Shown: piece after piece, positions 26,905 to 43,509 of the stretch
Position numbering within the stretch: the stretch's first letter is position 1
Layout: each line of letters opens with the position of its first letter
Assembly: GCA_047284725.1 (NCBI GenBank)
Contig: JBJBEO010000001.1
Location: 1,688,203-1,752,202, forward strand
Direction of reading: 5' to 3'
DNA length: 64,000 nt
Origin: Synechococcus sp.
Lineage (GTDB): Bacteria > Cyanobacteriota > Cyanobacteriia > PCC-6307 > Cyanobiaceae
Made by a program: the position numbers and the translations under genes
Notes under the pieces: generated by a model
Seen by the model: the letters and a program-made list of their open reading frames with translations, nothing else
Database searches by the model: none
Told to the model about the DNA's origin: nothing

Positions 26905-26955
26905 ACATCAACAGCGTGCGATGCCTTCAGAATGCAGGAGATCCGCAGAGCTTGC

Positions 26956-27486
26956 ATGCGCCGGCTGTTCGTATTGCTGCTGATGGGCTTGGCCTTGATC
27001 TGGCCCGTCTCTGTGCAGGCCACCTCTCTGGAGGTGACGATCCACAGCATCAGCGCTGACGGCGTCGGCGATCCGATCGGCAGCGTCAGCATCCGCGACA
27101 GCGATCAGGGCCTGGAGGTGATTCCCACCCTGACCGGTCTCAGCCCTGGCGAGCATGGTTTTCATCTGCATGAGAACAACAGCTGCGACCCAGACCTCAA
27201 TGGCGAAGGTGTTGCTGTTGCCGGGCTGGCGGCTGGTGGTCACTGGGATCCGGACGACAGCGGCACCCATCTCGGACCGTTCGGCAACGGGCACCGCGGC
27301 GATCTCAGCCGCCTGATCGTGGACGATGACGGCAGCACTCCCACCAGCGTGGTGGCGCCCCGACTGAGCACCGCCGATCTTCCTGGCAAGGCCCTGGTGG
27401 TCCACGCCGGTGGTGACACCTACAGCGACACCCCGCCTCTGGGTGGTGGGGGAGCCCGCATCGCCTGCGGGGTGGTGGGACGTTGA
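26956..27486 (+). CDS. sodC: periplasmic Cu/Zn superoxide dismutase
   Basis: Signal peptide, HGFHLHE, GGHWDP, GHRGDL, VVHAGGD, GGGARIACG. Confidence 0.95.
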   Translation: MRRLFVLLLMGLALIWPVSVQATSLEVTIHSISADGVGDPIGSVSIRDSDQGLEVIPTLTGLSPGEHGFHLHENNSCDPDLNGEGVAVAGLAAGGHWDPDDSGTHLGPFGNGHRGDLSRLIVDDDGSTPTSVVAPRLSTADLPGKALVVHAGGDTYSDTPPLGGGGARIACGVVGR

Positions 27487-28561: not shown

Positions 28562-28861
28562 ATGAACAACCTTGCCGGTGCGTTTCTGAAAACCACGCCG
28601 CTGCTGATGTCGGTGAGTGCGGCGGAAGAATGCAGAAGCCGTAATGACAGGCAGAGCTATTTCGCGATCACACGCGATCTGGTGCAGGCCCAGTTCGTCC
28701 TGGCTGATGCGGAACTGAGCCGCCGTCTCTGGCAGGAGGTGGCCGATCGTGATCTGGAAGTCGGCCGCATCCTGCATCTGCTCTATGGCTGCGTCTGCCA
28801 TGACGACGACGACGAAATGACCCTTGTCGACGACACCTTTCTGTCGATGGGTCTCGATTGA
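28562..28861 (+). CDS. conserved hypothetical protein (RNDRQ..AQF..LW domain)
   Basis: Paralogous to the C-terminal half of 35107-35541. Confidence 0.75.
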   Translation: MNNLAGAFLKTTPLLMSVSAAEECRSRNDRQSYFAITRDLVQAQFVLADAELSRRLWQEVADRDLEVGRILHLLYGCVCHDDDDEMTLVDDTFLSMGLD

Positions 28862-28863
28862 CC

Positions 28864-29316
28864 ATGCGCTCGCTGGTGATCGCTTGGCTGATCCACGGCG
28901 CTCTGCTGCTCAGCCACCCCGCTCCGGCCTGGGCCCAACCGTCCATCACGCTGATGCGCTCGCCCAGCTGCGACTGCTGCAGCCGATGGGGGGAGCAGAC
29001 CGCCGCCGCTGGTTTCGCGGTCAAGGACGTTGTCACCGAGGCGATCGATCAGGTCAAACTCCAGAACGGCATCCCCGAAGCGCTGTCGTCGTGCCACACC
29101 GCCTTGGTGGAGGGCTATGTGATCGAGGGCCATGTACCCGCTCCATCCATCCAGCGGTTGCTGAAGGAACGGCCCGACATCCAAGGGCTGACGGCCCCAG
29201 GCATGCCGATGGGGTCACCTGGGATGGATGGTCCGGGGATCATCCCTGAACCCTTCGACGTGCTGGCCATCACCAGCGATGGCAGCACCCATGTGTTCGA
29301 CCGTTACAGCTCCTGA
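28864..29316 (+). CDS. DUF411 metal-binding protein
   Basis: SPSCDCC, SCHTA..GYVIEGHVP, PGMPMGSPGM. Confidence 0.92.
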   Translation: MRSLVIAWLIHGALLLSHPAPAWAQPSITLMRSPSCDCCSRWGEQTAAAGFAVKDVVTEAIDQVKLQNGIPEALSSCHTALVEGYVIEGHVPAPSIQRLLKERPDIQGLTAPGMPMGSPGMDGPGIIPEPFDVLAITSDGSTHVFDRYSS

Positions 29317-29528: not shown

Positions 29529-30650
29529 ATGACACTGCAACACCTGGCGGTGAGTGGCTACCGCTCTCTCCAGAGCGTGGTGCTGCCCCTGAGGCAACTG
29601 ACGCTGATCACCGGGGCGAACGGCAGTGGCAAGTCGAATCTGTTTCGTTCGCTCCATCTGATCGTGGCCGCCGCCCGGGGAGACCTGGTGGCAGCGCTGG
29701 CCCGGGAAGGGGGATTGCCCGCCGTGCTCTGGGCAGGTCCGGAACGGCTCAGCCGCGGCATGCGCAGCGGAGAACAACCCGTCCAGGGTGGTCCGCGCCA
29801 GCAACCGGTGCGCCTGCGGCTTGGCTTTCACGCCGAGCCTTTTTCCTATGCCCTCGAACTGGGCTATCCGCAGGAGCGCGACACCGCCTTCGCCCTCGAC
29901 CCGGCCTTCAAAGGCGAGTGGATCTGGGCAGGAGGTGCCTTTCACCCCCGTTCCGTGCTGACGACGTGGACAGGCGGCAGTAGTGACACCGCCGACTGCA
30001 GCGTGTTCCAGGGGGGACTCGACCCGATGGAACACCCCGAGGTGCTGGCCCTGCGGGAACAGATCCTGAGCTGGCGGTTTTACGACAGCTTCCGCACCGA
30101 TGCCGAGGCACCGGCGAGACAGGCCGTGGTGGGAACCCGCTGCTTTGCCCTGGCCGGCGATGGCCATGACCTTCCTGCAGCGGTGCAGACGATCCTGGAG
30201 CAAGGCGATGGCCAGGGCCTGCAACAGGCGGTGGCCGATGCCTTCCCTGACAGCCATCTGAGCGTGAGCAGCGAGGGGGGCCTGTTTCGCCTGCGCCTGC
30301 ATCAGCCCGGCCTGCTGCGACCGCTGGAAACGAGCGAACTGTCCGATGGCACCCTGCGCTATCTGCTGCTGGCGGTGGCGTTGTTCAGTCCACGCCTCCC
30401 TCCCCTGCTGGTGCTGAACGAACCGGAGGGAAGCCTGCATCCCGAACTGCTGGAGCCGCTGGGGCGGTTGATCCGCGCAGCCGCAAGCCGCACACAGGTG
30501 TGGGTGATCGCCCATGCCCCCGCCCTGATCAACGCCCTGCGGAGCGATCCGACCTGCCATCACGTGCAGCTGCAACGGGAGCTGGGCGCGACGGTCGTGC
30601 AGGGGCAGACCAGCCTGGAACGCAGTGCCTGGCGCTGGCCGGCCCGCTAA
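29529..30650 (+). CDS. ABC/SMC-like AAA ATPase (AAA_21/RecF-like)
   Basis: Walker A GANGSGKS, signature LSDGT, LLVLNEPE.SLHP, H-loop. Confidence 0.9.
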   Translation: MTLQHLAVSGYRSLQSVVLPLRQLTLITGANGSGKSNLFRSLHLIVAAARGDLVAALAREGGLPAVLWAGPERLSRGMRSGEQPVQGGPRQQPVRLRLGFHAEPFSYALELGYPQERDTAFALDPAFKGEWIWAGGAFHPRSVLTTWTGGSSDTADCSVFQGGLDPMEHPEVLALREQILSWRFYDSFRTDAEAPARQAVVGTRCFALAGDGHDLPAAVQTILEQGDGQGLQQAVADAFPDSHLSVSSEGGLFRLRLHQPGLLRPLETSELSDGTLRYLLLAVALFSPRLPPLLVLNEPEGSLHPELLEPLGRLIRAAASRTQVWVIAHAPALINALRSDPTCHHVQLQRELGATVVQGQTSLERSAWRWPAR

Positions 30651-30713: not shown

Positions 30714-31205
30714 GTGCTTCGCACTGTTCTCACCCGGCCCTTCCTGGTCAACGCCGGCCTTCTGATCCTGCGGGTCTTCACCGGCACTCTTCTGATTCAC
30801 CACGGCTACGAGAAGCTGGCCAACATCGAAAACTTCGCGGCGGCCTTTGTGCGTCCGCTTCACCTGCCTTTCCCGATCACCCTCTCCTACCTGGCGGCGT
30901 TCTCAGAAATCGTGGGCAGCTGGTTGCTGATCACGGGACTGTTCACCCGACTGGGCGCAGCCGCCATTGCCGGCACCATCGGCGTGGCGATTTATCACGC
31001 CATTGCCGTGAATGGCTTCAACATCTACCTGCTTGAACTGCTGGGGCTTTATTTCGGCGCTGCCGTGATGGTGCTGACGGCCGGCCCTGGCCTGTTTTCA
31101 ATCGATGAGCTGATCGTGCGCAAGGTCGCACCTGGTGCGCGGGAGCAGGCCGAAAAACTCGAAGCCATCCTCAACAACGCGGCAACACCGGAATACCAGA
31201 ACTGA
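30714..31205 (+). CDS. DoxX-family membrane protein
   Basis: LLILRV..G..LIHHGYEKL, GLFTRLGA, GPGLFSID. Confidence 0.92.
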   Translation: MLRTVLTRPFLVNAGLLILRVFTGTLLIHHGYEKLANIENFAAAFVRPLHLPFPITLSYLAAFSEIVGSWLLITGLFTRLGAAAIAGTIGVAIYHAIAVNGFNIYLLELLGLYFGAAVMVLTAGPGLFSIDELIVRKVAPGAREQAEKLEAILNNAATPEYQN

Positions 31206-31222
31206 CGTCAGTCTGATCAACC

Positions 31223-31253
31223 ATCAAGGGGGCCTGCCCACCCCCCCCTTGAT
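31223..31253. terminator. hairpin between convergent genes
   Basis: atcaaggggg...cccccttgat inverted repeat. Confidence 0.55.
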
Positions 31254-31277
31254 CACCTCCCCCAGCCAGCCCTTTCA

Positions 31278-31499
31278 TCAGCTGACAGCAACGTGGGCCG
31301 GAGATCGGTCGCTGGTCCCTGCACGATGCGACTTCCTTCCCCAATACGACAGATGGGCTCGAGCGGTCGCCATGTCATTGCAATACACGCACCGCTCACC
31401 GGCGCAGACCCGATACACGAGGCCATCATCGCCAAGAAAAACGTGGACAGTACCACCATCGTCAGTGGTGATCAGACGGGAAGAAAGTAAAGACATCAT
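31278..31499 (-). CDS. small Cys-motif protein (YRxCxGxxCVYC family, copy 2)
   Basis: YRVCAGERCVYCNDMATARAHLSYW. Confidence 0.65.
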   Translation of the reverse strand: MMSLLSSRLITTDDGGTVHVFLGDDGLVYRVCAGERCVYCNDMATARAHLSYWGRKSHRAGTSDRSPAHVAVS

Positions 31500-31649
31500 C
31501 ACCTCATCTGAGGACACAAAGAGACTACAAATGGATCCCAATTGCGACAAGGCAACGATTGCATCACATAAAGCACCTACGCACAAACGCTCAGCCCTGG
31601 AAGCCCACCAAAGCAGCATCCACTGACAACCAGACTGCGTGTTCAATCA

Positions 31650-32460
31650 AGTAAGCATTCGGCCATCAACTGCGCAGTGAGCGAAGGCCATCGAGCGACG
31701 ATTCAGTGCAGCAGCGAAGGGCCATCTGCCTGCTCCCTTGCGATGCAAACAGATGCGAAAGTCCTCATCGGTGGGGAGCACCATTCCGTGCACCGATCAG
31801 CCATTCAGAGAACCAATTGAGAGACCTCACTCAGAGCAGACGTTCAGAACACACCAGCGTTCACCAGCAGGTGACTTTTTCACCCTCGTGCAGAAACGAT
31901 TGCATGAACTGTGTGAACACTGAGAGCTGTTGGTGAACTCACTGACGACCGCCAACCCTGCCGAGGATGCGTCGCCTTCGCCGATCAGCTTCAGGCACAT
32001 TGACTTCAGTCTCAGCCACCTGCCCCGAAGGCTGCAATGCGCGATTGAACTGATTGCCCTGATCCGCGAACGCAGCAACACTGATGGCAACGAGATCGGA
32101 GGCGCCGATGACGGCCGACACTCCACCCGAGCCCACACAAGAAGCACGCTGACTTTCTGGCCCCTGCTCCAACAGTTTTCACGCATTCGAGAGGGATTTG
32201 CCCATCGGCAGGCACTGCATTCGGCTTCGCCACGTCGATCGGCCCTCCATCCGCACCGCCCGAGGTGCCCTAAGGAGTCACGTCACCCTCCCACCTAGGA
32301 ACCTGGCCCCAGGCGCCAGAGCCAGTCGCTTCGATCCCTTCTCTTTTCAGTCCCTTTGCTTGAGGTTGCACAACCCAACGGCAACACTGAAAGTCGATCG
32401 ATCGTGATGAACAAACGAGCGAGATAGGCCGCCTTGTCCATCGGGGGAAGACGGCCTCAC
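31650..32460 (-). ncRNA. candidate large structured non-coding RNA (element A); ends approximate
   Basis: No credible ORF; many G.U-containing stems on the minus strand; homologous copy at 42245-42690. Confidence 0.6.
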
Positions 32461-32483
32461 CACATCAGCCCAACGCTGATGGC

Positions 32484-32522
32484 AACCCCCGCAGGTTTCC
32501 ACCAACGAAGCCTGCGGGGGTT
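32484..32522. terminator. terminator-like hairpin after the Nif11-like gene
   Basis: aacccccgcagg...cctgcgggggtt 12-bp stem. Confidence 0.65.
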
Positions 32523-32548
32523 TGCTTGTGGCAGCCCTTGGAGGAGCG

Positions 32549-32764
32549 TCAGTTGTATTCGCCGGGTGTTTCCTGCTTTGACACGGTGACCCGGCCCACC
32601 TTCTGCCCCGAGAAGCGCAGCAATTCATCGCCGGAGAACTCATAGCCCAGGCCTGCAGCGATCTTGGCGACATCGTCGGCGGTGGACGCCGCCAACACGG
32701 TCTGCTTGATCGACGCATCGTCTTGCATGCGCACGAGGAAGGCCTTCAACTGATCCAGAGCCAT
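32549..32764 (-). CDS. Nif11-like leader peptide family protein 1
   Basis: DQLKAFL..MQDD..IKQ.V.AA.TADDVAKIAA.LGYEFSGDEL. Confidence 0.88.
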   Translation of the reverse strand: MALDQLKAFLVRMQDDASIKQTVLAASTADDVAKIAAGLGYEFSGDELLRFSGQKVGRVTVSKQETPGEYN

Positions 32765-32859
32765 CAAAGGGAATGCAGCGTTCGCTAAGGCAGCGGACCA
32801 CCATCATCGAGCCAAACGGATTTTGATCGAAGCCGGCCGCAAAGCGCAGGCCAAAGCAT

Positions 32860-33420
32860 GGAACGGGCGATGAGAGCCCTCAACAATCAGGGTTCCCATG
32901 GGTTGGGCGTGGGCAAGATCGAGCTTCATGGTGCGTTGGCAGAGCAGGCTTCAATCACCTGCAACTTCCATCAGTTTCCTCCTGTCATCCCCCCGCTGAC
33001 GACTCCCCATCCGGGGACACTTTGCTCAGACCGCCTTAGCGTGATCAGTAAGGATGAGCTCAATCACACCACATCAAGCGAGGAGCCGCTGAAACACTTC
33101 CAAACAGTGAAATGCCTTCTCAAACCAGGGGGTGACCAGCGGCCATGAACAGTGGCCCTCCCGATCAGGAGAATGCCGCCGAAGCTGCGCGGCCATACAA
33201 CCACTTCAACGCTTCGATCGGCCCGAGGTGAAGAGATCGGCATTTCGGTATCGCTTCCTGCTCGATGGTGGAGCGGAAATGACGATCACCATTGTTTCTT
33301 CAGTCAAGAGGTCATGCAGGAGCGAATGAAAGCCGCAGGCACCTGCAACTTGAACGGGATCATGCCCAGTTTCAGCGCTGCGGGGTCGAGCAGTTCTGTG
33401 CGCAGTACTGACGAGTGATC
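32860..33420 (-). ncRNA. candidate structured non-coding element C; ends approximate
   Basis: No credible ORF; nested stems and a C-UUCG-G tetraloop on the minus strand. Confidence 0.4.
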
Positions 33421-33503
33421 GATGGAGTGATCGATGCCCAGCCACCCTTTGCCCTGATCTCAGCGCAGTGCTGACAGAGTGCTGCCACAACCTCTTCAAC
33501 ACC

Positions 33504-33848
33504 ATGAACCAACCCAGCCGTGACCAGGTGCTCGCCGTTTCAGCCGGCTGGGTAGCCGTGATTCTGAATGTGCTGCCAGGACTAGGAGCCGGCTATCTGT
33601 ATCAACGCCGCTGGACCGCCTATTGGGTGACCTCGGCGTTGGCGACAGCCTGGTTTGTCGCTGGCGCCGCCCTGGGGGGCGGATTGGAAGGAGGCAGTGC
33701 AAACCCAACACCGCAGAACCAACTCATTGGCCTGATTGGTCTTGTTTTGCTCAGCACCATCACGGCGACAGACGCCGGCCTCGCAGTGAAACGGGTACGG
33801 GCTCGCCTGACAACGGAGGTCACGACAGCATCGACTCCACTTCAGTAA
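33504..33848 (+). CDS. membrane protein
   Basis: LNVLPGLGAGYLYQRRW; three TM helices. Confidence 0.75.
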   Translation: MNQPSRDQVLAVSAGWVAVILNVLPGLGAGYLYQRRWTAYWVTSALATAWFVAGAALGGGLEGGSANPTPQNQLIGLIGLVLLSTITATDAGLAVKRVRARLTTEVTTASTPLQ

Positions 33849-34069
33849 TAACGACCGGGATATTCACCAGGGTGGTCGATACGGGTGACACGCACACCTC
33901 CAACGGAACGGCCAGACAACATGAGCAGATCACTCCCGGACACGGCGTACCCGAGGTCCTGGGCCAGAAGAGCCACCTGATCGGCCGTCATGGCTGCCTG
34001 CACCTTCGCCTGCAACAAGGGATCGCGGCTGAGATGGTCAAGAAAGCGTTGCAATGGTGTCGCCTCCAT
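33842..34069 (-). CDS. Nif11-like leader peptide family protein 2
   Basis: LQRFL..LSRDP.LQAKV.AA.TADQVALLAQDLGYAVSGSDL. Confidence 0.85.
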   Translation of the reverse strand: MEATPLQRFLDHLSRDPLLQAKVQAAMTADQVALLAQDLGYAVSGSDLLMLSGRSVGGVRVTRIDHPGEYPGRYY

Positions 34070-34114
34070 CCGCTCTCCAAAACTGATCGTTGATTCAACC
34101 TCATCCCCCATCCT

Positions 34115-34310
34115 TTGCACGGCAGAGAGCAACCTGACCGAAACGGTCTTGGCCCTGGTTCACACCTCGTTGGGAGGTGGACCTCTGCGGTCACTTCACC
34201 ACGACCGAATCACAGGACCTCGATCAGCTGGTCCCACCGAGGCCTTCTCGAATCCCCCACCGGACCTCATCGCCTCCTCAAGAGACCAACCGCTCCGCTG
34301 TGATCTGAGC
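34115..34310 (-). ncRNA. candidate structured leader/ncRNA element D
   Basis: Nested stems atcacag/ctgtgat, cggttggtctc/gggaccagctg, and gcagag/ctctgc enclosing two hairpins. Confidence 0.45.
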
Positions 34311-34444
34311 ATGAACCCGATGGCCATCTGCGCCAGCGAGGGCAGCAACGACCTCAAGTCAAGTCCAGGGGTTTCTTGACAGAGTTCATCAAGAATAAAG
34401 CACCCGGAACTTGACACTTAACCCCTGCTCAGATCAACACTGAA

Positions 34445-34570
34445 TCAGTGAAAAACTGCCAAGAAAGGAAAAGCGGTGACAACCACTGTGAGAACAATGA
34501 ACGACCAGATCAACATCAAACCGATACTGCGCTGATCAATCTCGTGGAGAGAAGGCGTACGCGTGGCCAT
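34445..34570 (-). CDS. small single-TM protein (41 aa)
   Basis: MATRTPSLHEIDQRSIGLMLIWSFIVLTVVVTAFPFLAVFH. Confidence 0.5.
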   Translation of the reverse strand: MATRTPSLHEIDQRSIGLMLIWSFIVLTVVVTAFPFLAVFH

Positions 34571-35008
34571 CGAAAAACTGCAACTACCCAAAGCCATAGC
34601 CACGATGAGCCGATCCCCACATCAGCAGATCCACTCACCCTCTTCACCCCCAAGCAGGGTGAAGCATGCTGTTCGGAATCAGAACGACTGCTCATAACAA
34701 TTTCGTCTTCAGAGCTTCGCCCAACCGAGCACCAGCTTCGACATCACCAGAAAGGCTTCATCACAGAAAGTATCGATAGTGATTGTCAGATCATGCTCCA
34801 CAGCCTGAGCAGCACCAGCAGGTAAAAACGCTTCACAAGCAATGCGCAACAACGGCAGCGCACGCAACCATCAAACAGCTGGTATGACCAGGCACGTTCC
34901 AGCGAACAGGACGCACTAAGTATCAACACCTAGACATGCCGCCATATGACTGATGAAGAAAATCCCGACATCAGGGGCATTCCCCCAACCGGTTCGCTTG
35001 AATATTTC

Positions 35009-35024
35009 TGTAGCAACAACTACA
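35009..35024. promoter_or_regulatory. NtcA binding site
   Basis: TGTA-GCAACAAC-TACA = GTA-N8-TAC, upstream of a DUF4278-type gene. Confidence 0.8.
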
Positions 35025-35090
35025 CATTGCCCACCCTTCTCCACTGTTGGAGCCCAGTTCACCTCAGGCCATGAAACGAAGGCCTGAACT
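35025..35090 (+). ncRNA. glutamine riboswitch (Downstream-peptide/class II-like), divergent
   Basis: ctcca/tggag hairpin, CAGTTC..TCAGGCCATGAAACGAAGGCCTGA core, typical NtcA + DUF4278 context. Confidence 0.6.
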
Positions 35091-35106
35091 ATCGATGGAA
35101 CGACCT

Positions 35107-35541
35107 ATGACCACTCTTCTCTATCGAGGTAAAACGTACGAAACTCATCACGAGCCTGCCCCGAGGGCTTGCCGTGAGTTGAACTACCACCAGCAGCACT
35201 ACAACACTTGCCGCGAACAGATCGCCAAGCGTGATCTCCACCCGCATCTGAACTATCGCGGGATTGCCTACACCAAAAACGCACAGACCATAGAAAGTGC
35301 GAATGCGGAAGCGCGGATGCGCAACGATCGCCAGGCCTATCTGACCATCGCCCGCGACCTCGCTGAGGCCCAGTTTCAACGGGGCGATGCGGAACTCTCA
35401 GACCGCCTCTGGGAGGAAGCAGGAGATCGCGACATGGATATTGAGCGCATCACACATCTTCTCTACGGATGCTGGTTCCAGGACGACGCTGAAGCCATGC
35501 GGGAAGCCGACGAGAATTACCTGGCTGCCCATCACTCCTAA
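35107..35541 (+). CDS. DUF4278-type protein fused to an extra C-terminal domain
   Basis: MTTLLYRGKTY...LNYRGIAY repeats followed by the RNDRQAY domain. Confidence 0.75.
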   Translation: MTTLLYRGKTYETHHEPAPRACRELNYHQQHYNTCREQIAKRDLHPHLNYRGIAYTKNAQTIESANAEARMRNDRQAYLTIARDLAEAQFQRGDAELSDRLWEEAGDRDMDIERITHLLYGCWFQDDAEAMREADENYLAAHHS

Positions 35542-35618
35542 ACACCCCCAAGCAGCACATCACCAACTCCGCTCCAAGCAACAGCGCTGCAGCGGAGTTG
35601 GTGAACCCTCAAAGCACT

Positions 35619-35819
35619 TCATCCACGCCAGGTGGGAACGCCATCCGAGAACAAAGCACCACGTTGAGTCCATAACTGCGATGGCTCGATCTTGAGCCCA
35701 TGCTCTGCGCAGAAACGAGATGCCTCCATCGTTGTCATCTTGGTGTGAAGCCCCTGAGCGAACACAGGATCCTTCTTGATGCGCGCCTTCAAGAGCCCGA
35801 TTGGTGTTGAAACAGTCAT
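35619..35819 (-). CDS. divergent Nif11-like protein
   Basis: LKARIKKDPVFAQGL...EASRFCAEHGLKIEPSQLW. Confidence 0.55.
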   Translation of the reverse strand: MTVSTPIGLLKARIKKDPVFAQGLHTKMTTMEASRFCAEHGLKIEPSQLWTQRGALFSDGVPTWRG

Positions 35820-35858
35820 GACGCACCTCGAGAAACGAAAAAGTACGAGAGCAGTGAT

Positions 35859-36068
35859 TCAGTTGTGCAACGGATGAGCAGTTAGCCAACACAATGGCAA
35901 CGTCTCACCAGAAGGAAAAAGCAACTCACCTTTGGCAAAGACTTCTGGATCCTGGAGCTCTTCCCCAGCATGAAGACGACCTTCGAGGGAGACCTCGAAG
36001 GGATTGATCAACTGATCCATGGCGAGAACCTCCACCAGAGATCCATCACTCTTTGTTTTTAAAAACAT
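35859..36068 (-). CDS. small conserved cyanobacterial protein
   Basis: LVEVL...LINPF....GRLHAGEELQDPE.F.K..L.FPSGE.LP.CW. Confidence 0.8.
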   Translation of the reverse strand: MFLKTKSDGSLVEVLAMDQLINPFEVSLEGRLHAGEELQDPEVFAKGELLFPSGETLPLCWLTAHPLHN

Positions 36069-36129
36069 GGCAGCCCACCTCTCGTTTTCAGCCTTAACAA
36101 CAAGCTAGGAGGATGCGATAGCAGCGTCA

Positions 36130-36363
36130 TTAGGTACGAATCCCCTTCTCTACGCAAACCAGCAGATGCCCATGGGAGAGGCGTCGTGCTCCCTCCGCGA
36201 TCAACGCTCCCCTCGGCGGGGCGCGGGCCGGCTGCGCAGGAGACAGGATCAGCCCATCGCTCCACGACCCTGCAAACACGAGCGGGGCAACCATCCACCA
36301 CCAAGCCGGCAACAACAAAAACCAGAGACCGTGATCGCAAAACTGCCCTGGACCCGCCATCAT
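36130..36363 (-). CDS. hypothetical Trp-rich protein
   Basis: ORF divergent from 36389. Confidence 0.35.
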   Translation of the reverse strand: MMAGPGQFCDHGLWFLLLPAWWWMVAPLVFAGSWSDGLILSPAQPARAPPRGALIAEGARRLSHGHLLVCVEKGIRT

Positions 36364-36381
36364 GTAACGAATTCGTTACAT
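36362..36381. promoter_or_regulatory. perfect 20-bp palindrome, putative operator
   Basis: ATGTAACGAATTCGTTACAT, 7 nt before the ATG at 36389. Confidence 0.55.
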
Positions 36382-36388
36382 CATTCTC

Positions 36389-36646
36389 ATGACTGTGGGT
36401 GAGGTCTTCCTGGAATCACTCTCTTCAGGAGTGATCACGGAAAGCGAGATGGGTTGGCTCACCGCCAACCAGGCCGGCTTCAGCCGCACGGAAGAAGCCA
36501 CGGCACTACGCCTCGGCCGCCTGATCGACGAAGGCAGCATCAACATCGGCTGCCGCATGCCTCGATCCACGTCCAGGCGCCATCAATTGGCCGATGAATG
36601 GCTGGAAACCCTGGGCCGTCGCCGTCGCCACGCGAATCGCAGATAG
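36389..36646 (+). CDS. conserved hypothetical protein
   Basis: MTVGEVFLESLSSGVIT..E..W......FSR.EEA.ALRLGRLIDEG.INIGCR. Confidence 0.8.
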   Translation: MTVGEVFLESLSSGVITESEMGWLTANQAGFSRTEEATALRLGRLIDEGSINIGCRMPRSTSRRHQLADEWLETLGRRRRHANRR

Positions 36647-41985: not shown

Positions 41986-42150
41986 ATGACATCCGAAATC
42001 CGCAACTGGGCCGTGGTGGCAGCAGCCATGGAAGCTCAGGGGACGACAAACAGCGAGATGTACCGACGTGCCAAGGCTATGGCAGAAGGCAAGCGTGACC
42101 CAATGCCGACAAGCTACCCCGCTGCCCCTTACAGCATCTCCATCGCCTGA
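41986..42150 (+). CDS. small protein, NW..E..G.T...Y.RA family (copy 1, 54 aa)
   Basis: Hand-translated MTSEIRNWAVVAAAMEAQGTTNSEMYRRAKAMAEGKRDPMP; paralogue at 49134. Confidence 0.75.
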   Translation: MTSEIRNWAVVAAAMEAQGTTNSEMYRRAKAMAEGKRDPMPTSYPAAPYSISIA

Positions 42151-42244
42151 CGATTGTCTCCGGTGACGATGGCGGTCTTCTCGTTTTGACAACGGCGAGA
42201 TCGCCATCTTGTTGACAGTCCAGATGTTGTCAGCCCAAAGAGGA

Positions 42245-42690
42245 AGGCCGCCTTCCCGAGTGGGAAGACGGCCTAGCTCGCTCGTTCGCGCATGGTTCAA
42301 CCCCGTCACGTCTTGGGAAAGAAGGAAAGGGGCGAAGCGTTCTGGCGTTGGCAACCCTGGGGCCATGACGTCCAGGTGTAGTGCTGATGAAGCTCCGGGG
42401 CACCTTGTCTGCATGAGCAGCGTTGGGCGGTGCAGTGGAGTGTCGATTCGCGTGGCGCACCGGATCAGTGCCTGCGAAAGGACCAGCTCTACGGATGAGT
42501 GGAAACTGTTGGAGCAGGGGCCAGAAGTCAGTCTGCTTCTTAGGTTTGCTCAGGTGGAGTGTCGGCTGTCATCAGCGCCTCCGATCTCGATGCACCTACT
42601 TTGCGCTGGCTGGGCGGGGTTGCCTATCCGTGTAAAGGCGCATTGCCTTTGCGGGCCAACCCACCGAAAGTTTGAACGGCGTGCCCTCAG
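42245..42690 (+). ncRNA. second, shorter copy of candidate structured RNA (element B)
   Basis: Collinear nucleotide homology to the reverse complement of ~32000-32460. Confidence 0.55.
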
Positions 42691-42699
42691 GCACCACCA

Positions 42700-43509
42700 T
42701 TATCTGGACAGCCGTTGATGCCTGAGGCCCACCAACGCGGCAGCGGCACCGTAATCAGCCGCAATCAGCTGCAACTCCGCCTGATTGATTTTCCAGATCA
42801 CCTGCACTGAAAAGGCCTGTCCCACAACCAGGCGAGCCGGGCAACGCAGAATGATGTCGTCGGGGAAATAGACAGTCAGCGGCTCGGATGGCACCCAGGT
42901 CCAAGCCATCGTCCCCGTTGCAGCCAGCGAAAGGTCTGGGCGAAGCCGCCACTCCTCTCCGTGCCATTCACCGTCGGGTTGCCACGCTGGCACCTGAGCA
43001 ATGGCCTTGGTCCAGGGGCTCGTTGAGGCCGCTCCACGATGTTCACGAATGCTTGCGGTTCTCACCAACGCGCCCTTCTGGCCGTACACCAAGCCAACAC
43101 TGTGTCGCGTCTCGCCTTTGGCAAGAAACAACTCAAAGGCTGCAAACTGTTCAACGTCGAGGCGGGGGATCAGCCAGGTGGCGGCACCATCGTCAAAGGC
43201 AAAGCCACGCATGGATGGATGCGCTGGATGCGCGAAGCCATCGCTCAGGCTGTGGTCAACAACGTTGTAATCCCACGCTTCAGCGATGTCTTTCCCATCG
43301 TCATAGAGGTAGCGATTGCGCTGATGGACCTCGTTGTGTTCGGCATCCGCCGTGAAGTGACGCGCGCTTTCAAAGGACTCCATGACCTCGCCGGAAGGCT
43401 CGTAACGGGTCCAGCGGCCATGCCATTCGCCCAGGTGATGGCGCCAGAAATTGGTCCAGTTTCGCCTGGAGGCTGACGCCGTCGTCGTTCCTTGGTTGTT
43501 GAGAGCCAT
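42700..43509 (-). CDS. DUF3598-type protein
   Basis: GEWHGRWTRY, ELFL..G..RHSV..VY...G.L......REHR. Confidence 0.75.
   Translation of the reverse strand: MALNNQGTTTASASRRNWTNFWRHHLGEWHGRWTRYEPSGEVMESFESARHFTADAEHNEVHQRNRYLYDDGKDIAEAWDYNVVDHSLSDGFAHPAHPSMRGFAFDDGAATWLIPRLDVEQFAAFELFLAKGETRHSVGLVYGQKGALVRTASIREHRGAASTSPWTKAIAQVPAWQPDGEWHGEEWRLRPDLSLAATGTMAWTWVPSEPLTVYFPDDIILRCPARLVVGQAFSVQVIWKINQAELQLIAADYGAAAALVGLRHQRLSR

Follow-up and report, generated by a model that had tools for sequence, protein, structure and literature searches.

The 64,000-nt stretch of Synechococcus sp. contig JBJBEO010000001.1 analysed here (the window) very probably holds two paralogous, stand-alone genes of the Yfr103 family of non-coding RNAs (ncRNAs), with copy 1 on the plus strand (~32089-32465) and copy 2 on the minus strand (~42591-42237). 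An earlier note on this DNA had read positions 31650-32460 as a single minus-strand ncRNA of ~800 nt from an undescribed family; we find instead that the RNA very probably belongs to a known family, Yfr103, and that the earlier reading took the wrong strand and was twice too long. Searching the window by nhmmer with a family profile built from 71 unique flanked copies gives a match at 31990-32458 on the plus strand for copy 1 (E 2.2e-76), a match at 42687-42233 on the minus strand for copy 2 (E 7.2e-98), and no further match anywhere in the 64 kb. Comparison of the window with itself by blastn aligns 32087-32261 with 42593-42425 (80.1% over 176 nt) and 32414-32457 with 42286-42245 (79.5% over 44 nt), and these coordinates establish that copy 2 is oriented opposite to copy 1. 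The two copies face each other, ~9.8 kb apart (32.46-42.24 kb). Over the transcribed part, 229 of 334 aligned positions are identical, a further 64 columns contain gaps, and many frame-breaking indels separate the two sequences. Hence the diverged, collinear second copy that the earlier note had pointed out is real, as are the frame-breaking differences that it had listed. A protein-coding gene or pseudogene was considered and rejected because the frames are broken between the copies and no Pfam family lies over either of them: eight open reading frames (ORFs) that overlap the copies, together with ORF 42209-42718, all remain below the Pfam cut-off (best score 13.3 bits, cut-off 27), in agreement with the view that the region is non-coding.

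Each element is ~470 bp long and consists of a promoter region of ~95 bp followed by the RNA. Conservation within the family stops near 31990-31994. Among the matches listed (120 of 125 blastn rows), no locus matches 31501-32004, and WH7803, the closest relative among them at 82%, is likewise without a match to this interval. Moreover, the sequence from 31650 to 31990 does not fold better than its dinucleotide shuffles, the z-scores being -0.06 (minus strand) and -1.29 (plus strand). The end of conservation near 31990 and the shuffle-level folding therefore place ~340 nt of the stretch flagged earlier outside the element, and on present evidence 31650-31990 is a spacer between the copy 1 gene and a possible divergent small ORF. 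The long-range gcgaaggc/gccttcgc pair that had been proposed to span this interval is present (31681 and 31974), but the region holds three such 8-bp inverted pairs compared with 6.1±3.1 in shuffles.

Relatives were gathered by scanning genome contigs with a 19-mer common to both window copies, which gave 98 loci, and the profile matches at least 70 nt in 95 of these. To build the alignment used below (A2), 69 unique copies were clustered at 95% identity, which left 53 near-full-length ones, one row (L085) was dropped for an invalid coordinate, and two shorter Prochlorococcus copies were added to the remaining 52, making 54 copies in all. The consensus fold obtained for the transcribed part with RNAalifold comprises 84 pairs in 15 helices. 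Standard pairs occupy 92.2% of the cells (84 pairs in 54 copies), a value that falls to 35-47% when the partners are slid. Pairs that change on both sides number 35, compared with 17.8±2.4 in shuffles (none of 500 reaches 35) and 15-28 when slid, and the cells showing such changes number 144, compared with 36.9 in shuffles and 24-71 when slid. Helices 3, 10, 11 and 14 and the terminator are the best supported; at column pair 136/144, for example, 39 copies have CG and 13 have UA, whereas at 227/349 UA occurs in 26 copies and CG in 19. Covariation thus bears out the idea of a conserved, structured RNA. The long-range closing helices (GAAGC/GCUUC, CUG/CAG, GGCCCCUG/CAGGG..GCC and CCA/UGG) show no change on both sides of any pair and are formed mostly by pairs that never vary, so that covariation neither supports nor refutes them; the fold as a whole combines a sequence-invariant core with variable peripheral helices that tolerate insertions. 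Lengths, measured between the predicted start and the last base of the tail and thus dependent on predicted transcript ends, are 327-334 nt in 28 of 51 copies, at least 352 nt in 20 and 301 nt in one. The long variants (352-383 nt) result from insertions in peripheral loops, and both window copies are among them, copy 1 with an additional hairpin inserted into the loop of helix 14. Predicted transcripts of ~376 and ~354 nt, in a family with its mode at 327-334 nt, accordingly replace the length of ~800 nt given before.

Four independent lines of evidence favor the plus strand as the RNA strand for copy 1 and the minus strand for copy 2. First, G-U combinations occupy 333 cells of the consensus fold and A-C combinations 107, a ratio that inverts on the other strand, and the RNAalifold energy is -166.6 on the favored strand compared with -155.9 on the other. 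Second, at least five T residues occur in the 9 nt after the terminator hairpin in 28 of 53 copies on the favored strand and in two of 53 on the opposite one. The hairpin of Prochlorococcus copies differs, and it too precedes a T run on the favored strand; for copy 2, a terminator scan calls the terminator on the favored strand as well. Third, sequence conservation runs ~95 bp past the structured part on one side only, where an nAnAnT hexamer precedes an invariant A by 7 nt, and this arrangement is that of a promoter reading the favored strand. In the other orientation, conservation begins abruptly at the hairpin and nothing upstream of the hairpin is conserved. Fourth, a GGAGG motif is followed by a start codon at 4-8 nt in all 54 copies (5 nt in 47), the start codon being ATG in 50 of these and TTG in four. 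This Shine-Dalgarno (SD) motif and start codon open a mini-ORF of 10-14 codons, exactly 14 in 49 of the 54 copies, with MTADTPPEQIxEAD as its consensus peptide. Folded as the minus strand, moreover, 32089-32464 in copy 1 scores z = +0.79. The earlier placement of copy 1 on the minus strand thus fails on the G-U excess, the T-rich tails and the -10-like box, all of which belong to the opposite strand, and the individual stems named with it fare unevenly. Two of them, aggccgtctt/aaggcggcct and ggagtgtcgg/tcggcgcctcc, are real and represent, on the other strand, the conserved terminator and the SD hairpin, respectively. On the other hand, aggtg/cacct is absent from the consensus fold, and the stems within 31650-31990 do not rise above chance because folding there is no better than that of dinucleotide shuffles.

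The promoter region has further conserved features. A family palindrome, GGCAAT-N14-ATTGCC, lies at about -56 to -31, the place expected of a -35 box. Its first base is at -56 in 40 of the 54 copies (-55 in 13 others, -57 in the last), and its final base is at -31 in 42 (-30 in 11, -32 in one). Within the nAnAnT hexamer, A107, A109 and T111 are invariant in 54/54 copies, and the invariant A that follows 7 nt later is the predicted start. No consensus RNA fold is found on either strand for the upstream ~95 bp. Two smaller features of this region deserve mention in their own right. The spacer between palindrome and hexamer (A2 columns 85-113, about -30 to -10) contains a perfect inverted repeat of 7-9 bp in nine of the 54 copies, such as TTTGTGCC/GGCACAAA, but not in the others, and its best stem has a mean of 4.46 compared with 3.48 in shuffles. 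In addition, a conserved block (GGCACGCC...CAC..T.CG) occupies A2 columns 22-42, ~75-97 bp before the predicted start (31994-32014 in copy 1 and 42685-42665 in copy 2). This block sits beyond the palindrome published for Yfr103 and lacks a consensus fold; it may offer a second site for protein binding.

As part of identifying the family, the window was searched with Rfam 15, which gives no hit at gathering scores, the models covered including RNase P, tmRNA, SRP, 6S, group I and II introns, OLE, ROOL, GOLLD, HEARO and Yfr1/Yfr2. Around the copies, the rows obtained at E<=10 are at chance level, the best of them being a microRNA model at 25.1 bits against a cut-off of 70. Known Rfam families were consequently rejected as nothing credible emerges at gathering scores in the window or at E<=10 around both copies, which agrees with the earlier note, where the element was not recognised as RNase P, tmRNA, SRP, 6S or a group I/II intron. 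The Cyano-2 motif is found in Synechococcus in gene-poor surroundings, and a link to it had also been suggested; Cyano-2 gives no gathering-score hit in the window and is absent from the seven and five rows returned at E<=10 around the copies, so that this link is not found. The best match is provided by the literature. In the available text of Hou et al. (2016, PMC5069720), Yfr103 is described as seven paralogues of 290-328 nt in Synechococcus CC9605 that together contribute 55.2% of the strain's reads in metatranscriptomic differential RNA sequencing (mdRNA-Seq), with homologues in WH8109, WH7803, CC9311, WH8102, RCC307, CC9902 and others, and in the low-light Prochlorococcus strains SS120, NATL1A/2A and MIT9303/9313. 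According to the same text, the secondary structure is strongly conserved, as is an imperfect palindrome that lies at -29 to -58 (±1) relative to the mapped start, and the RNA is extremely abundant and responds when light or temperature shifts; the authors treat the RNA as non-coding, term its function "enigmatic", and credit Voigt et al. 2014 with first noticing it as the most abundant ncRNA of MIT9313 (PMC5069720). A literature search beyond this paper returned, in the text available from sources that included the review PMC6596454, nothing on the function of Yfr103.

The family in the window resembles Yfr103 in several respects. Both have several paralogues per genome and are hosted by marine Synechococcus, including WH7803, and by Prochlorococcus; the published size of 290-328 nt lies close to the predicted 327-334 nt of the 28 copies in the modal class above; secondary structure is conserved, with covariation support in the family studied here; and an imperfect palindrome ~30-58 nt before the start corresponds to that at -56 to -31. 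The SD motif with its mini-ORF and the block at roughly -97 are differences, in that the published description, so far as its text is available, does not mention them. On these grounds we are confident that the family is Yfr103, and only slightly less so of the joint statement that the two stretches of the window are members of this family with the strand and extent given here. The description of the family as a new one is thus very probably mistaken, the features found being those that Hou et al. (2016, PMC5069720) describe, at least in the text available.

Several observations weigh against this reading. The family is matched to Yfr103 by description and not by sequence, and the predicted lengths of the window copies, 376 and 354 nt, exceed the published 290-328 nt. 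The predicted start was chosen with the published palindrome figure of -29 to -58 in mind, so that the agreement in palindrome position is only partly independent. A simple sigma-70 scan called no canonical promoter at either copy, and the tail of the copy 1 terminator is not U-rich. Folded as single sequences, the copies do not stand out (copy 1, z = -0.41; copy 2, z = -2.33); such z-scores are uninformative, and the case for structure consequently rests on covariation. In core helices 5, 7 and 8, however, double-sided changes are absent and most pairs are constant, and covariation therefore cannot confirm these helices. The mini-ORF has no codon periodicity (entropies of 0.560, 0.645 and 0.589 at codon positions 1, 2 and 3 in 51 of the 54 copies), and two of the 54 copies, copy 2 of the window included, stop early at codon 11. 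With regard to mechanism, finally, no neighboring gene is conserved among the ORFs within ±4 kb in 99 contexts, and the model set out next is one that we infer throughout.

Our tentative model, which we hold at somewhat less than an even chance, is that Yfr103 serves as an abundant ribonucleoprotein scaffold that binds or sequesters protein. The palindrome would be an operator at which a transcription factor drives or gates very strong transcription, and the invariant core would present a specific binding surface. Invariance inside helices is unneeded for structure alone, which argues for such a scaffold rather than for an antisense small RNA (sRNA) acting through a short seed. The 5' end would in addition load ribosomes through its GGAGG motif, start codon and mini-ORF, and a ribosome travelling as far as the UGA would open closing helices 5 and 6, tying ribosome occupancy to the fold. 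This part of the model reflects the layout of the consensus fold, in which helix 2 pairs GGAGG with a CUCC located downstream, the start codon lies in the loop of covarying helix 3, and codons 12-13 and the stop codon supply the 5' sides of closing helices 5 and 6. The same holds for copy 1 itself, in which codons 12-13 are the 5' arm of closing helix 5 and the stop is in closing helix 6. Such a scaffold would be comparable to 6S-type sequestering RNAs, which are likewise abundant, stand-alone and highly structured, with features that suggest recognition by protein and not a short antisense seed. 6S RNA, however, is a rod with a central bubble, whereas the Yfr103-like RNA is a closed multi-helix domain, is multi-copy, carries a 5' SD motif with a mini-ORF and gives no 6S hit in Rfam. 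The combination of an invariant core with a variable, insertion-tolerant periphery is also seen in OLE, ROOL, GOLLD and raiA; the RNA described here differs from these in having no Rfam match, in its smaller size (~330 nt) and in its restriction to picocyanobacteria. A more doubtful alternative is that Yfr103, reportedly the most abundant transcript of marine picocyanobacteria, is a ribosome-engaging RNA, acting as a translation-coupled switch or as a sponge for ribosomes or 30S subunits, and tuned by a factor that binds the palindrome. As the last codons of the mini-ORF and its stop form the 5' strands of the closing helices, ribosome loading and the folded state would be mutually exclusive.

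The mini-ORF might instead be the purpose of the gene. The RNA would then be a tiny mRNA, or a dual-function RNA, encoding an acidic peptide of 10-14 residues, with the structured remainder as a stabilizing or regulatory 3' untranslated region (UTR). The universal GGAGG and start codon and the predominance of frames of exactly 14 codons are as this explanation predicts. Moreover, Prochlorococcus copies have another loop sequence yet still begin in frame, at TTG or ATG, and end at the same stop after 13 codons, and the second proline codon varies synonymously between CCT, CCC, CCA and CCG. Nevertheless, the absence of codon periodicity and the early stops noted above speak against selection on a peptide, as do the non-synonymous changes of residues 9-11 and 14 and a sub-family that reads MRDDGPTEQI. 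In addition, the conserved codons fall on RNA positions that are base-paired and invariant in sequence, which implies that the open frame may be a by-product of constraints on the RNA, and the available text of Hou et al. (2016, PMC5069720) treats Yfr103 as non-coding. Judged from the alignment, these data fit conserved access for ribosomes better than a conserved peptide, and we consider the tiny-mRNA explanation unlikely.

It is rather less likely still that Yfr103 is a trans-acting, base-pairing sRNA for which the invariant 19-mer CTGGCCCCTGCTCCAACAG, or another conserved stretch, is the antisense seed. Like several sRNA families, the RNA is multi-copy, abundant, stand-alone and equipped with a terminator, and the 19-nt stretch is common to Synechococcus and Prochlorococcus copies, although the copies were gathered with this stretch as the seed. 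The 19-mer, however, lies mostly within predicted helices 7 and 8, conservation extends over many blocks across ~300 nt and not over one seed, and the size and closed multi-helix architecture are atypical of seed-type sRNAs.

Very little probability attaches to a repeat that acts only as DNA, such as a mobile-element remnant, a miniature inverted-repeat transposable element (MITE), an island boundary or an attachment site. The copies are indeed multiple, lie among variable small genes without a conserved neighbor (Nif11-like ORFs occur within 4 kb in 11 of 99 contexts), cluster with up to four per 20 kb, and in the window face each other over ~9.8 kb. The strand-asymmetric G-U excess (333:107), however, is not expected of double-stranded DNA, and neither helices preserved by compensatory changes nor a terminator and promoter-like architecture on one strand fit such a repeat; in addition, phage and plasmid collections contain no match, no transposase or integrase family recurs beside the copies, and published transcripts fit by description in the available text (PMC5069720). 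Equally improbable is the single minus-strand ncRNA of ~800 nt at 31650-32460, from an undescribed family possibly tied to gene-free DNA that precedes Cyano-2 motifs: the stretch is repeated and does not code for protein, no Rfam family matches it and some of the stems named are real helices on the other strand, but conservation stops near 31990 with nothing conserved upstream of the hairpin in that orientation, the minus strand gives neither a favorable fold (z = -0.06 for 31650-31990 and +0.79 for 32089-32464) nor a G-U excess (107:333), T-rich tails follow in two of 53 copies, no Cyano-2 hit appears at E<=10, and a matching family is already published as far as the available text describes it (PMC5069720).

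Taken alone, the assignment to Yfr103 is routine annotation: it adds two copies to a published family that escapes both gene callers and Rfam. Correcting strand and extent nevertheless means that no 800-nt "new RNA family" is carried forward, and the 95 alignable public loci with clear covariation are enough for a covariance model that Rfam appears to lack. In the sea, Yfr103 reportedly accounts for more than half of the primary-transcript reads of Synechococcus CC9605, and the available text of that report continues to describe its function as "enigmatic" (PMC5069720). The operator-like palindrome that replaces the -35 box, the invariant closed core, and the universal SD motif with its mini-ORF provide testable handles on this function. 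The coordinates of these features are collected in Table 1.

Table 1. Positions in the window of the two Yfr103-like genes, their predicted signals and an adjoining hairpin.
Feature	Position	Strand	Remarks
Yfr103-like RNA, copy 1	32089..32465	+	predicted transcript ~376 nt; start = A invariant in 54/54 copies
Promoter region, copy 1	31994..32088	+	A2 column-to-coordinate map
Upstream conserved block, copy 1	31994-32001	+	degenerate GGCACATT
Imperfect palindrome, copy 1	32033-32058	+	TGCAAT-N14-ATTGCC; about -56 to -31
-10-like hexamer, copy 1	32077-32082	+	AACACT
GGAGG and mini-ORF, copy 1	GGAGG 32098-32102; ATG...TGA 32108-32152	+	5-nt spacer; 14 codons, MTADTPPEPTQEAR
Search-seed 19-mer	32157..32175	+	CTGGCCCCTGCTCCAACAG; core of helices 7 and 8
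Family terminator hairpin, copy 1	32426..32457	+	tail CACCACAT
Second GC-rich hairpin	32486..32530	+	CCCCCGCAGG / CCTGCGGGGG; 10-bp arms, 15-nt loop; self inverted match 32484-32522
Yfr103-like RNA, copy 2	42237..42591	-	predicted transcript ~354 nt; nhmmer match 42687-42233
Promoter region, copy 2	42592..42687	-	nhmmer and A2 map
Upstream conserved block, copy 2	42685-42678	-	GGCACGCC
Imperfect palindrome, copy 2	42647-42622	-	
-10-like hexamer, copy 2	42603-42598	-	CAAAGT
GGAGG and mini-ORF, copy 2	GGAGG 42582-42578; ORF 42572-42540	-	10 codons MTADTPPEQT, early TAA
Intrinsic terminator, copy 2	42245..42274	-	13-bp stem, 4-nt loop, tail TCCTCTTTGG; terminator scan

The second GC-rich hairpin in Table 1 lies 30 nt past the copy 1 terminator, between it and the stop codon of a convergent Nif11 gene. 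Its stem (32486-32520) is followed by TTTGCTTGTG on the plus strand but, on the minus strand, by no more than TTGCCATC; the WH7803 copy has a hairpin like it. As a terminator it seems to suit the Yfr103-like RNA better than the Nif11 gene, or it may work in both directions. It is therefore possible that this hairpin ends the copy 1 transcript, as a back-up terminator or as a bidirectional terminator shared with the Nif11 gene.

The hosts of the family are, by their titles, nearly all Synechococcus, Parasynechococcus, Cyanobium, Vulcanococcus, Prochlorococcus or unnamed cyanobacteria. Three of the 98 loci fall short of the profile, one of them being a seed-only match (L020) and two having no match at all (L025 and L096). 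Synechococcus WH7803 (L002) has two profile hits, and the Prochlorococcus copies come from MIT 0707, MIT 0603 and four single-cell genomes, all of which we take to belong to low-light clades. Complete or near-complete assemblies, several of them metagenome-assembled genomes (MAGs), contain 3-4 seed matches each, as seen on single chromosomes or long MAG contigs such as those of MIT S9507, MIT S9451, MIT S9503 and CUG2213, and no 20-kb locus has more than four profile hits. Clusters of up to four hits in 20 kb, partial copies included, are seen at loci L010/L040, L054 and L073/L089. Full-length copies also occur on MAG contigs with non-cyanobacterial titles, namely L003, L021, L052, L071 and L095 (Salipiger bermudensis), L050 ("proteobacterium") and L088 ("Flavobacteriia"), and these are probably mis-binned picocyanobacterial contigs. 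The element has no blastn match in the phage and plasmid collections searched, and a phage or plasmid origin was rejected for this reason.

The gene convergent with copy 1 encodes a 72-aa Nif11-domain protein (32549-32767, minus strand; Pfam E 2.4e-15). Between the two copies, Pfam families identify this Nif11 gene, a DUF4278 gene (35047-35541), an Mrp-type antiporter cluster and a PhzF-like gene. A 54-aa ORF (41986-42150, plus strand; MTSEIRNWAVVAAAMEAQG...) is convergent with copy 2 and matches no Pfam family; small ORFs resembling it lie within 4 kb of the RNA gene in seven of 99 contexts. The loci with Nif11-like ORFs within 4 kb include L028, L037, L040, L042, L060, L071 and L073, and the 3' end of the window Nif11 gene has, among the matches listed, blastn matches 0.9-1.8 kb from the copies in several loci. 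These ORFs may point to a loose association of the RNA gene with islands of small-peptide genes. The only clusters of neighboring ORFs that recur within ±4 kb in more than 12 of the 99 contexts are spurious ORFs on the element itself.

The copy 1 gene lies in a gene-poor stretch (31205-36390) with a G+C content of 0.54-0.60, compared with about 0.62-0.68 nearby, and a strongly negative GC skew. Only the Nif11 and DUF4278 genes have family support in this stretch, which may hide further small genes or RNAs. Glutamine-II riboswitches (Downstream-peptide) are typical of these organisms. A weak match to this family at 32814-32868 on the plus strand (13.2 bits, where the gathering score is 33; E 3.6) lies directly upstream of an ORF without a Pfam family (32858-33148, plus strand) and is probably due to chance. 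Immediately upstream of the gene-poor stretch are genes for a Cu/Zn superoxide dismutase (26932-27486), a DUF411 protein (28858-29316) and an AAA_21 (AbiEii-type) ATPase (29529-30650).

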